Sequence record: PP496998.1
Length of the DNA: 64,000 nucleotides
Strand: one strand, 5' to 3'
Origin: Escherichia phage EC.W14-3
This document shows, one piece after another, positions 4,292-41,857 of this stretch (positions within the stretch are counted from its first letter, which is position 1; every line of letters begins with the position of its first letter). The notes below the pieces were generated by a model. It worked only from the letters and a program-made list of their open reading frames with translations. It had not been told where the DNA came from and searched no databases. Both the position numbers and the translations under genes were made by a program.

Positions 4292-5025
4292 GTCGTCGTC
4301 AATCACGGAAAGAATCACGGAAAGACCTTCGTCGAGAAGCACTTGTTACTCGTAAGGGTAAGCGAGAGTATGAAGAGGTGGTTTTAGCAAAGCCTGTAGT
4401 CCCTCAGAACCAGTTTCAGTCTGAGCTACTCAATGCTATTAAGACTAAACAAGTTGTGTTCACAGACGCTCCTGCGGGCTGTGGTAAGACCTTTGTAATC
4501 ACTTCCACGGTTATTGATGCACTGAAGAGTGGTAAGATTCAGAAGATCATCCTGAGTCGACCTTCAGTTGGCATGGGTAACTCTCTTGGGTTACTTCCGG
4601 GAGGAATGCGTGAGAAGTTTGAACCATACCTGATGCCTATCATTGATGTTATTACTCAGCGATACGGTAAGGGATTCTATGAATGCCAAATCGGAAATGG
4701 TAACATTGAATTTGTACCTCTGGAATATCTCCGTGGTCGCTCTTTCAACGATGCCATTGTTATCGTAGATGAGTTCCAGAACACAACTAAGGATGAAGCC
4801 TTCTCCATCATGACTCGATTGGGAGAAACCTCTCAATTGTTCTGTATGGGTGATACAAACCAGCATGATATGCGTGGTCGCGAGAGTGGTCTAACTTGGG
4901 CTACTAACTTTATTGATGAACACGATCTGTATGAGTTTGCTGAGATTGTAGATGGTGAATCAGATGATATTGTTCGTTCTGGTTTCTGTAAGGCGATTGT
5001 TAAAGCAATGGAAAAGAAAGCTTAA
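4288..5025 (+). CDS. phoH: PhoH-like ATPase
   Basis: Walker A DAPAGCGKTF, Walker B IVIVDEFQN, PhoH-type spacing. Confidence 0.85.
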   Translation: MSRRQSRKESRKDLRREALVTRKGKREYEEVVLAKPVVPQNQFQSELLNAIKTKQVVFTDAPAGCGKTFVITSTVIDALKSGKIQKIILSRPSVGMGNSLGLLPGGMREKFEPYLMPIIDVITQRYGKGFYECQIGNGNIEFVPLEYLRGRSFNDAIVIVDEFQNTTKDEAFSIMTRLGETSQLFCMGDTNQHDMRGRESGLTWATNFIDEHDLYEFAEIVDGESDDIVRSGFCKAIVKAMEKKA

Positions 5026-39097: not shown

Positions 39098-39121
39098 CAC
39101 ACTAGCTTGTATAGGTCTTAA

Positions 39122-39150
39122 AACGAAAAAACCCCGCCCGAAGGCAGGGT
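39122..39150 (-). terminator. rho-independent terminator after capsid/Ig ORFs
   Basis: minus strand ccctgcc-TTCG-ggcgggg hairpin followed by TTTTTTCGTTTT. Confidence 0.7.
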
Positions 39151-39156
39151 CTGATT

Positions 39157-39669
39157 TTAAGCAGGTGTTACACCAGTAAAAGTGCATGTTGCATTGATGG
39201 ACGGGTCAGCTGTCAAACTTGCTTGAACAGTAACTTCGCCACTTGCAGCAGCATCTAAGGTTAACGCACCAGCGGCGCTTACTGTACCGGCTTCTGTAGG
39301 AGTTACAACAAACGTGTAATCCGCAGCAGCAGAGTTAGTTACAGTAAACATGGTAGTGAAATTAGTGGAAGAACCACCAGTTTTACCCGTAATTGGACCC
39401 TTAGCTACAATAGTAGGAGCAGGAGCAACAATTTCAGAAATGGTTGCTGTACCAGAAACACCTTCTAAAGTTGCAGTAATGGATACATCAGTGGATTGAG
39501 ACGCACTCGGAGCAGTATACAAACCAGACTGAGTGATAGAACCACCTCCTGTCACTGACCAAGTAAAGCCAGTTGTTTCGGTAGAACCATCACTTTTCTC
39601 CGCGCTTGCAGTGAACTGCCGAGTAGCCCCTGTCTCTAGACTTGCTAAAGACGCAGGGCTAACAGTCAC
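39157..39669 (-). CDS. Ig-like (BIG2) domain ORF, likely C-terminal extension of capsid protein via -1 frameshift
   Basis: -1 frame relative to capsid gene, open across capsid stop, no own RBS, GTG-only start; BIG2-like sequence. Confidence 0.55.
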   Translation of the reverse strand: MTVSPASLASLETGATRQFTASAEKSDGSTETTGFTWSVTGGGSITQSGLYTAPSASQSTDVSITATLEGVSGTATISEIVAPAPTIVAKGPITGKTGGSSTNFTTMFTVTNSAAADYTFVVTPTEAGTVSAAGALTLDAAASGEVTVQASLTADPSINATCTFTGVTPA

Positions 39670-39680
39670 ACTGTCTACTG

Positions 39681-40739
39681 TTACGCCGCCACCTTTCCCG
39701 CAGCAGTGAACAGAACGCCGGAAGCATACGGGTTGCGGTGACGCAGACCAACTTCCATTTCAATCATCCACTTCTCGTAAGAACCGTCTTTAGCCAGTTC
39801 AGTACGTTTCGGAGCACGCAGAACCATCTGAGTCCAGTCAGCGCTACGGAAGAAGTAAACTGCATCGGTAGGCATCCAACGGTTAACGATGATTTTGTAG
39901 CTCTGGCCCAGCGGGTCAGTGATGCTGTTAACTTCGTAGATGAACTGCTTGGTGTTCTCAAAGATACGCTTACGTGAACCCTGAGTATTTTCTTGCAGAC
40001 CAGCAAAGATCTTAGCATGAGCCGGGTTAATCATGATGATATCTGCTTCAGAACCAGCGGTATACAGTTGCAGAGTCATATCAAAGATATCAGCTTCGTC
40101 GAAACCAATGTTAGTGGTCGGGTTAGAAGCATTCTGTGCAACTTTAACAGTTACTGCACCAGTGTCCGGGTCAGCAGGACCATTCTTGGTCTTGTCAACA
40201 ACGCCACCAGCCAGACCACCGTGAGCACACAGGAACTGGAATGCACCAGTCTTACGAGCTGCATGGGTGTCATTCAGACCAACAACAGCAGGATCAGTTG
40301 CAGAGTTAGTCAGATACTGGTCAGCCAGAACGTCGGTACGAGCCTGACCGGACAGAAGGATTTTCTCGAGGTCACGCTTGATCTCTTTACCTTTCTTCTC
40401 CAGCTGATACATCAGTTCACGACCACGACCGTAGTTAGCGGTGGTGTTAGCAGTATCAGAAACACGAACAACCTTACGCAGAATCTGAGTAACGTTAGAT
40501 TTGATAACAGTCGGTTTCATTTCACCGTCTTCAGCACGAGAGCCTTCGACGTGTGCGTTATTACCGTCAACGCTTGCCAGTGCATCGGTCTGCCAGCTAA
40601 AGATAGTCTGGTTGATAGACTCTTTACCGGTCATAGATACGAACGGGGTATCCTGAGGGGACAGAACAGAAATCCAGTTAGCAAAAGAAAGTTTTTTACC
40701 ATTCTGGTCATACGATACAAATAAAGTTGGATTAGCCAT
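39681..40739 (-). CDS. major capsid protein
   Basis: 352 aa, host-optimal codons, follows scaffold gene, own terminator downstream. Confidence 0.7.
   Translation of the reverse strand: MANPTLFVSYDQNGKKLSFANWISVLSPQDTPFVSMTGKESINQTIFSWQTDALASVDGNNAHVEGSRAEDGEMKPTVIKSNVTQILRKVVRVSDTANTTANYGRGRELMYQLEKKGKEIKRDLEKILLSGQARTDVLADQYLTNSATDPAVVGLNDTHAARKTGAFQFLCAHGGLAGGVVDKTKNGPADPDTGAVTVKVAQNASNPTTNIGFDEADIFDMTLQLYTAGSEADIIMINPAHAKIFAGLQENTQGSRKRIFENTKQFIYEVNSITDPLGQSYKIIVNRWMPTDAVYFFRSADWTQMVLRAPKRTELAKDGSYEKWMIEMEVGLRHRNPYASGVLFTAAGKVAA
39693..39699 (-). other. candidate -1 ribosomal frameshift slippery heptamer G_GGA_AAG
   Basis: minus-strand GGGAAAG in capsid zero frame (gcG GGA AAG) 12 codons before stop; same heptamer as lambda G-T frameshift site. 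Confidence 0.55.
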
Positions 40740-40780
40740 GTTATGTTAGCTCCTATACTATTAATAATTTAATTTGTCGA

Positions 40781-41857
40781 TTAATCTACGAGGAATTTGA
40801 ATGCGTCTTCGTGACTAACGCGACCCTCTGCGAATGCCTTGGCAACCTTAGCGTTGTCGGGCTTATTGGAAGTGCGAGACTTTGCAGCATCAGACTTCAC
40901 AACCTTGCGTGGAGCACCGGGACGTTTAATCTTAGCCATCACCTGTTGCTTACCTTTATCAAATTGGTATGCTTTGTGGAGAGCTAGGAAAATAGACGGA
41001 CGGTTTTCCTTCAATACTTCTTCTTCAGTAGCACCTAAGTCAATTGCGTATTGCATTAAGTTTTGATATAAGTTTTCATCCCAATTTGGAATCTCACGTT
41101 TCAGAATATTAACACATTCAATACTCTTGGCTTGGAAAGCTTCCTGCTCTTTAGCTGCTGCTTCCTGCTTAATACGGACCTGAGCCTGTTCAAGCTGTTG
41201 ACGGCGAGCTGTGTACTTCTCTAGGAAACGTTTGTTTTCAACATATGCTTGAGGATCTTCTACTGCAAGCTTGTCCCAATCAAAACCGTTATAATCTTCA
41301 ATTACTCGGTCTGCTTCTAAAGACGCTAGTTCTAATACATCCTTCAAACCTACTACACGTTCCTCGAATGCTTCCATATGACGCTGAAGAGTTGATTCTC
41401 GTTCTGTCATATCAGCACCAGTAAGATAGCCATTAGAAAGTTCTTCAATAGTCATCTCACGTCCATCAGGAAGGGTGATAACGGTTTCGTAGTCTACATC
41501 AAAGACTTCACCTTCACCGTCAGCAGAATCATCTTCATACTCTGCATCGCTTGAATCTTCTTCCTCTTGTTCTTCTGCTTCAGAGGATTCGTCTTCATCT
41601 TCTTCGACTTCGCCTTCCTCTTCACGATCTTCCCAACCATCTTCATCTTCGAACTTAAGCTCATCGCTTTCACCGAGAAGGTCGGTATCAAAGTCGAAAT
41701 CGTCACCGTCTTTTTCCGGGAACTCATCGTCAATGTCCACTTCTGGTTCTTGTTCAGATTCTAATCGACCGAGTTCTTCTTTGAAAGAACCTTTCAGGTC
41801 ATCCAGTTGGAGGAAAGATTTAAAATCGTTCGGGTCAATATAATTATCTTGTGGCAT
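40781..41857 (-). CDS. scaffolding protein
   Basis: 358 aa, highly acidic Glu/Asp tracts, between portal and capsid; RBS AGGAG. Confidence 0.55.
   Translation of the reverse strand: MPQDNYIDPNDFKSFLQLDDLKGSFKEELGRLESEQEPEVDIDDEFPEKDGDDFDFDTDLLGESDELKFEDEDGWEDREEEGEVEEDEDESSEAEEQEEEDSSDAEYEDDSADGEGEVFDVDYETVITLPDGREMTIEELSNGYLTGADMTERESTLQRHMEAFEERVVGLKDVLELASLEADRVIEDYNGFDWDKLAVEDPQAYVENKRFLEKYTARRQQLEQAQVRIKQEAAAKEQEAFQAKSIECVNILKREIPNWDENLYQNLMQYAIDLGATEEEVLKENRPSIFLALHKAYQFDKGKQQVMAKIKRPGAPRKVVKSDAAKSRTSNKPDNAKVAKAFAEGRVSHEDAFKFLVD

Follow-up and report, generated by a model that had tools for sequence, protein, structure and literature searches.

The capsid locus and its reading frames

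The window analyzed here, a stretch of 64,000 nucleotides (nt) from Escherichia phage EC.W14-3 (sequence record PP496998.1), carries on its minus strand the gene of the major capsid protein (MCP), followed in the -1 reading frame by an open reading frame (ORF) for immunoglobulin-like (Ig-like) domains. The MCP consists of 352 amino acids (aa; 38.7 kDa), belongs to the HK97-fold SU10_MCP family (PF17236, E=9e-77 in Pfam) and is 100% identical to the "major head protein" of Escherichia phage SkaterBoy_Bas90 (Bas90). On the minus strand, the gene ends with ...ACT GCT GCG GGA AAG GTG GCG GCG TAA, the stop codon TAA lying at 39683-39681. The arrangement is very probably the programmed -1 ribosomal frameshift known from the major capsid gene of Kuravirus (phiEco32-like) phages, and a capsid frameshift at GGGAAAG is not a new discovery, being already known for this phage group. 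A sequence-only reading of the window had put forward a programmed -1 frameshift leading from the MCP into the Ig-like ORF, which is supported by the comparative data and by the literature on the phage group. The coordinates of the features are collected in Table 1.

Table 1. Features of the MCP/Ig-like locus in the window and comparable sites in related phages.
Feature	Record	Position	Strand	Basis or remark
Slippery heptamer G_GGA_AAG	Window	39693..39699	minus	Sequence, register, relatives, cited papers
MCP gene, zero frame	Window	39681..40739	minus	ORF list; Pfam SU10_MCP; Bas90 identity
Overlap in which the MCP frame and the -1 frame are both open, 76 nt	Window	39684..39759	minus	-1-frame stop map
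-1-frame extension, 178 aa (GGGVTVDSVTVSP...TGVTPA), two tandem Ig-like beta-sandwich domains	Window	39160..39693	minus	Translation, Pfam, AlphaFold2, Foldseek
GTG, gene-caller start of "Ig domain containing protein" (39669..39157)	Window	39667..39669	minus	ORF list
Conserved mRNA hairpin within the coding sequence of the extension	Window	39611..39669	minus	RNAalifold consensus, 12 distinct Gordonclarkvirinae sequences
Intrinsic-terminator-like hairpin and T-run	Window	39129..39152	minus	Terminator scan; annotated in the same place in SU10 and Paul
G_GTA_AAG	L009-L012	around 4412-4418		
G_GTA_AAG	L020 (Aeromonas phage LAh_9)	3912-3918		
G_GTA_AAG	L022 (Pantoea phage TacPo2)	3888-3894		
A_AAA_AAG	L014	4421-4427		-1 ORF only 42 aa
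MCP gene and second full-length MCP paralogue	L029 (Salmonella phage 7-11)	1666-2604 and 2685-4442		Likewise L019 (BUCT695) and L021 (GAP52)

Over the MCP gene, the -1 frame is interrupted by 44 stops, after which it is open from 39759 to 39160 (200 codons) and closes with a TAA at 39159-39157. Outside the 76-nt overlap, a -1 shift could not connect the two ORFs; the single in-register X_XXY_YYZ heptamer within the overlap is G_GGA_AAG. The first G of the heptamer is the third base of a zero-frame codon (index mod 3 = 2), and the heptamer lies 16 nt ahead of the first base of the MCP stop codon. Reading after the slip proceeds through GGT GGC GGC GTA ACA..., giving ...FTAAGK followed by GGGVTVDSVTVSPASL. 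The predicted trans-frame product is a protein of 527 aa and 55.6 kDa, made up of MCP residues 1-349 and 178 aa of extension, with the junction peptide ...FTAAGKGGGVTVDSVTVSPASL..., which may be written as ...AAGK/GGGVTVDSVTVSPASLASLETGATR. The sequence-only reading had quoted the same gene end, placed the heptamer at the same position, described the -1 frame as open into the Ig-like ORF and estimated a fusion of about 530 aa and 55 kDa; the gene end is read directly in the sequence, the heptamer does stand in slip register, the -1 frame is open and the estimate agrees with the computed size.

As a bare word, GGGAAAG occurs six times in the window against 7.6 expected. Rarity of the heptamer was therefore dropped as evidence, and its position and register were counted instead. 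Of the six sites, only the one at 39699..39693 lies in slip register in a real ORF, with 349 open codons ahead of it, and leads into a long -1 ORF of 178 codons, the remaining five sites having 1-33 codons. From those site counts, the chance of an in-register GGGAAAG falling within a given 76-nt overlap was estimated at ~1e-3.

Conservation of the heptamer and of the two-frame arrangement

The comparison set comprised 31 related loci from IMG/VR and GenBank, 17 of which belong to the Gordonclarkvirinae (phiEco32-like, SU10, Paul, YF01, KBNP1711, EP335, SGF2, Bas86, Bas87, E20-1, ev_rybdy3, and NJ01- and ECBP2-like contigs). GGGAAAG was found to be invariant and in register in 17/17 Gordonclarkvirinae loci, 16-19 nt ahead of the stop, and remained invariant even at loci whose flanking codons vary. 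The differences in heptamer-to-stop length among these loci amount to exactly 3 nt, by which both frames are kept. The overlap of the two frames measures 76-154 nt in the relatives, and the -1 ORF continues past the MCP stop for 175-545 codons, the only exception being SU10 with 8. The peptide encoded in the -1 frame, G(S)GGVTVD[ST][VI]TVSP, is conserved in the Gordonclarkvirinae from the first codon after the slip. The locus thus presents the features of tandem slippage on X_XXY_YYZ, i.e., an in-register heptamer, a -1 frame open into a substantial ORF without a conserved start, and a heptamer, register and pair of frames that are maintained across the phylogeny.

Outside this subfamily, the Proteus phages P59 and Privateer (2/2 Privateervirus loci; about 57% MCP identity) keep G_GGA_AAG, directly abutting the TAA, and their extension differs, consisting of an I-set domain followed by Big_2. 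Since P59 and Privateer share the heptamer but append different cargo, the mechanism appears, from these comparisons, to be older than the particular extension, the mechanism being conserved while the cargo changes.

The Ig-like extension

Pfam identified a Big_2 domain (PF02368) at residues 6-83 of the extension (E=2e-5; 24.8 bits vs a gathering cutoff of 22.8). The AlphaFold2 model, built with 18 sequences, showed an all-beta protein of two domains with a mean predicted local distance difference test (pLDDT) score of 96.5. The first domain thus belongs to Big_2 by a score above the gathering threshold together with a beta-sandwich in the model, while the second domain (roughly residues 90-178) is Ig-like by predicted fold only, with no Pfam match. 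The sequence-only reading had called the extension an Ig-like (BIG2) domain; the Big_2 assignment was confirmed by Pfam, and the single domain became two Ig-like domains in the AlphaFold2 and Foldseek analyses. The best Foldseek match was to the tandem Big_2 domains of Leptospira LigA (E=6e-10), and further matches were to the phi29 capsid protein and to chains of the SU10 tail (nozzle) protein. With the phi29 capsid protein among these matches, a C-terminal Big_2 domain on an HK97-type capsid protein is an architecture already known.

The length of the extension varies among the Gordonclarkvirinae, from 178 aa in the window to about 345-545 aa in Paul, YF01, Bas87, EP335, Bas86, E20-1, and SGF2. 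The added length consists of extra copies of the second Ig-like module ("KGPITGKxGGxxxxFxxMFTxTNS..." repeats) and a distinct C-terminal domain. As the length varies through added modules, the decoration is modular and quickly evolving on a fixed slip site.

A conserved hairpin downstream of the heptamer

The RNAalifold consensus revealed a hairpin that starts 23-26 nt 3' of the heptamer (23 nt in the window), exactly at the annotated GTG. This spacing exceeds that of a classical frameshift stimulator. In the alignment of 12 sequences, 98% of the hairpin cells were paired vs 31-51% in slid controls. Three pairs show double-sided changes, pair 54/68 being found as G-C, U-A, and A-U; the covarying pair joins a synonymous third position of a Ser codon with the second position of a variable E/P/L/Q codon. 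Single-sequence folding of the 90-93 nt downstream of the heptamer was unremarkable (z=-1.7), and folding of 39640-39712, with the heptamer included, gave z=-0.16. Inspection of the sequence upstream of the heptamer revealed no Shine-Dalgarno-like sequence. A stimulatory element, either a stem-loop or pseudoknot 5-9 nt away or an upstream Shine-Dalgarno-like sequence, is common and not obligatory in bacteria and phages. The sequence-only reading had named prediction of RNA structure downstream of the heptamer as a check, and the outcome was mixed: no structure was predicted at 5-9 nt, but a conserved covarying hairpin lies 23-26 nt downstream.

A stem-loop that includes the heptamer itself was proposed by the authors of the SU10 study (PMC4281155). 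The hairpin at 39669..39611 is not mentioned in the literature covered on these phages. It may be a candidate modulator, acting in frameshift tuning, in occlusion of internal initiation or in something else.

Published record of the frameshift

In SU10, "ribosomal slippage (GGGAAAG)" has been reported to fuse the major head protein to an Ig-like domain "as in phage phiEco32" (Mirzaei et al., 2014; PMC4281155), and two forms, of 38.5 and 55.4 kDa, were detected by mass spectrometry (PMC4281155). The values of 38.7 and 55.6 kDa computed for the window match these two forms. The same GGGAAAG signal was described in Privateer, where the minor capsid protein was identified in virions by mass spectrometry and two bands were seen on sodium dodecyl sulfate polyacrylamide gel electrophoresis (Corban et al., 2021; PMC7881722); the frameshift product was stated there to be as seen in phiEco32 and SU10 (PMC7881722). 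The paper on YF01 (2023) described the slip for the whole Kuravirus-like group (PMC9965538), and a note in the GenBank record of phage Paul credits the frameshift to phiEco32 (2008), citing PMID 18294652. A join by ribosomal slippage is annotated only in the records of Paul, YF01, and Privateer. No mention of the frameshift was found in the BASEL paper, which introduced Bas90, or in the SU7 paper.

Proposed mechanism and alternative explanations

In the mechanism proposed, most ribosomes would stop at the TAA (39683-39681) and yield the 352-aa shell protein. A minority, presumably small, would slip with GGA and AAG in the P and A sites, both tRNAs (Gly from GGA to GGG, Lys from AAG to AAA) re-pairing one base upstream. 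Reading would then resume with GGT GGC GGC GTA... and continue as far as 39160, giving the 527-aa, 55.6-kDa protein. Since the whole HK97-fold body is retained, the long form could be built into the prolate head together with the short one as a minor subunit, probably with its Ig-like domains facing outward. The Ig-like domains would likely serve in weak adhesion to surface carbohydrate or in stabilization, as proposed for phage Ig-like domains generally.

Several points weigh against this interpretation. The signal, the frames, their conservation and the predicted fold of the extension come directly from the present analysis, but the presence of the long form in virions would be argued from the literature on relatives, not from the Bas90 protein. 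The phiEco32 result of 2008 is known second-hand, through the SU10 and Privateer papers and the Paul GenBank note, and the GenBank records of Bas90 and phiEco32 give two separate genes without a join. Single-sequence folding predicted no stable structure at the canonical spacing of 5-9 nt from the heptamer, and the conserved hairpin stands as far as 23 nt downstream, its single-sequence stability being unremarkable (z=-1.7). Cryo-electron microscopy of SU10 showed a head without Ig density, and no long band was present on the SU10 gel (PMC9509320). The deposited SU10 sequence (KM044272; locus L002, around 2640-2650) differs from all relatives by a 1-nt insertion (ACTGTCTACTG instead of ACAGTGTGACTG), which stops the -1 product after 11 aa. 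The head without Ig density can be explained by this truncation, and the premature -1 stop was given as the reason in the YF01 paper (PMC9965538). This explanation itself contradicts the 55.4-kDa species of 2014, a discrepancy that points either to different stocks or to an error in sequencing.

Among the alternatives, the Ig-like ORF could be an independent gene that starts at the GTG at 39669 and encodes a free 170-aa Ig-like decoration protein, bound non-covalently to the capsid. Many GenBank records, including those of Bas90 and phiEco32, annotate it in this way, and the authors of the SU10 cryo-electron microscopy study took gp10 as a separate protein, maybe lost in purification (PMC9509320). 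The GTG is present in the window, but the 22 nt upstream of it (TGGCGGCGTAACAGTAGACAGT) contain no Shine-Dalgarno sequence, whereas each of the MCP, scaffold, and adaptor genes is preceded by GGAG or AGGAGG at normal spacing; the sequence-only reading had likewise given the ORF no ribosome-binding site and only a GTG start. At the position of the GTG, the Gordonclarkvirinae loci have GTA (11), ATA (1), or GTG (4), SU10 being out of frame there; hence most relatives have no start at this position. The GTG is residue 9 of the extension and lies inside the first predicted beta-strand (residues 6-12), which begins ahead of it in the AlphaFold2 model, and amino acid conservation extends upstream of the GTG as far as the heptamer. 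Starting precisely at the GTG, the conserved hairpin would mask this codon, and in relatives a form of 55 kDa has been found by mass spectrometry. The GTG is most likely just an internal Val codon of the extension, and an independent gene is improbable.

The database entries for the Ig-like ORF give a similar picture. Gene callers choose four or more internal start codons (MTVSP, MASL, MTSL, and MSDGS), some at least 128 nt downstream, several of which cut into the Ig domain and truncate Big_2. A search of the protein database with the extension returned 25 matches and served mainly to supply an alignment for the structure model. The strong matches, 21 in number, are short gene-caller ORFs that disagree in their starts; no fused MCP-Ig entry was found among the 25. 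The annotated starts lie from 12 nt to more than 150 nt past the MCP stop. The public names are also inconsistent, the ORF being called "Ig domain containing protein," "major head protein," "capsid and scaffold," or "hypothetical protein."

Still less probable is termination followed by reinitiation, in which ribosomes that end at the MCP TAA restart at the GTG at 39669 without a Shine-Dalgarno sequence and make a little separate Ig protein. The MCP stop and the GTG are about 11-12 nt apart on one transcript with no terminator between them, which would suit such a restart, but the GTG is missing in most relatives while the heptamer is invariant, and reinitiation would leave unexplained both the conserved peptide from the heptamer to the GTG and the 3-nt rule for insertions and deletions. 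Reinitiation could occur as a minor side reaction in the source phage only.

The least probable alternative, that the downstream ORF is a decaying remnant, the heptamer coincidental and only the 352-aa MCP of importance, draws on the apparent tolerance of SU10 to loss of the extension and on GGGAAAG not being rare in the window, but appears already effectively refuted by the conservation data, the extension being intact and conserved in 16/17 related loci and, in several, lengthened to 345-545 aa, its fold predicted with very high confidence (pLDDT 96.5) and the heptamer invariant where flanking codons vary. Transcriptional slippage was also considered, and was ruled out on established knowledge of RNA polymerase slippage since three G and three A do not form runs of sufficient length.

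Genomic setting

A megablast comparison of region 39100-40800 matched 125 phage records. Over this 1.7-kb region, identity was 100% to Bas90 (PQ850626), 98.6% to phiEco32, and 98.2% to SU10. On these sequence identities, the source phage can be placed in Kuravirus (phiEco32-like), subfamily Gordonclarkvirinae, which are prolate podophages of the C3 morphotype. The minus-strand gene order is portal, a 78-aa ORF, scaffold, MCP, Ig-like ORF, terminator, adaptor, and tail fiber. Orthology and synteny both link the locus to the Kuravirus MCP frameshift locus, this order being common to phiEco32, SU10, and Bas90. GenBank record MZ417522.1, labeled "Mycolicibacterium phage J1" (host M. smegmatis; 24,953 bp), shows 93.9% nucleotide identity to the capsid/Ig region and is most likely a mislabeled or contaminated record.

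The terminator-like stem after the Ig-like ORF has 10 pairs, 6 of them G-C, followed by TTTCGTTTTA, and the terminator scan found none between the MCP stop and the Ig-like ORF. The capsid transcription unit is closed by this terminator behind the extension rather than at the MCP stop, as the sequence-only reading had noted.

Putative long capsid isoforms in the wider family

More distant relatives have G_GTA_AAG, with a non-canonical P-site codon, at the end of the MCP gene, and their GenBank records annotate separate genes. At four of these loci (L009, L012, L020, and L022), I-set or Big_2 Ig-like domains are encoded by the -1 ORF and begin no more than a few residues from the site; Pfam was run on the -1 ORFs of L009, L020, and L022. 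At L009, a stem-loop lies 6 nt downstream of G_GTA_AAG, and the fold of the downstream 90 nt has z=-4.0. These sequences suggest that the capsid frameshift may extend to the G_GTA_AAG lineages, with a weaker heptamer.

In some Grimontviridae, the -1 ORF is absent, and a terminator after the MCP gene is followed by a second full-length MCP paralogue. The second "major head protein" of Salmonella phage 7-11 consists of 585 aa, is 74% identical to the 7-11 MCP over 309 aa and has a C-terminal Big_2 domain. In 7-11, gene duplication takes the place of recoding as the route to the long MCP-Ig isoform. Since a related lineage builds the same fusion by duplication, the fused species, not a free Ig protein, can be taken as the functional product.

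Taken together, the wider prolate-podophage family appears to reach the long MCP-Ig isoform by an optimal G_GGA_AAG heptamer, by a non-canonical G_GTA_AAG (or A_AAA_AAG), with a strong stem-loop only 6 nt downstream in one metagenomic lineage (the IMG/VR loci L009-L011), or by a duplicated MCP gene. Such a three-route scheme is not mentioned in the literature covered on these phages. The joint reading, in which the family makes the isoform in three ways and the hairpin at 39669..39611 tunes the slip at an unusual distance or suppresses internal initiation, is a tentative one and somewhat doubtful. If it is true, the family would constitute a natural series in which heptamer quality is set against the proximity of structure in fixing the stoichiometry of capsid decoration.

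The frameshift itself is an established example, and little knowledge is added here, mainly a correction of annotation and the side observations. Records of the Bas90 and phiEco32 type should carry a slippage join giving a 527-aa minor capsid protein in place of a free Ig protein with an arbitrary start. The slip would fix the proportion of plain to Ig-decorated capsid subunits, and Ig-like domains at the surface may affect adhesion to cell or mucus glycans as well as particle stability. Kuravirus-type phages are under development for therapy against pathogenic E. coli.

Comparison with known systems

The lambda G/G-T system has the identical heptamer G_GGA_AAG, a -1 slip near the end of the upstream gene and a minor fusion made at a fixed ratio; its slippery heptamer is established, reportedly through Levin, Hendrix and Casjens in 1993 and Xu, Hendrix and Duda in 2004, the latter cited in the YF01 paper (PMC9965538). 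The lambda product is, however, a tail chaperone that stays outside the mature particle and is non-homologous, whereas the gene of the source phage encodes a protein of the virion shell. The G-T class consists of tail assembly chaperone pairs upstream of the tape measure gene, and the gene found here is a podovirus MCP gene. The source-phage frameshift works like G-T but is not a member of that class, with which it shares only the heptamer. The sequence-only reading had drawn the parallel to lambda G-T through the heptamer, which is indeed identical and apt as an analogy.

Its second parallel, to T7 10A/10B, is also apt as an analogy, T7 being a capsid frameshift that is cited in the Privateer and YF01 papers (PMC7881722, PMC9965538). 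In T7 and T3 10A-10B, a -1 frameshift near the end of the major capsid gene likewise places a minor, C-terminally extended subunit in the head. The T7 system uses a different slippery sequence, its extension is about 50 aa and a distant 3' sequence is needed. The MCP families of T7 and the source phage are only distantly related HK97 folds.

The same end product, an HK97-fold MCP with a C-terminal Big_2 domain, is made with no recoding in Salmonella phage 7-11 (Grimontviridae) and in phi29 gp8. Phage 7-11 differs in having a duplicated full-length MCP gene with an in-frame extension, located after the terminator, and in phi29 the Ig-like domain is carried on every capsid subunit.

The closest system is the Kuravirus MCP frameshift itself (SU10, Paul, and YF01, with the same signal in Privateer). 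The source phage matches it in the gene and in GGGAAAG, which has an identical location, and the -1 extension begins with the same Big_2-type Ig-like domain. Nothing of substance differs between them; the extension measures 178 aa in the source phage vs 543-545 aa in YF01 and Paul.

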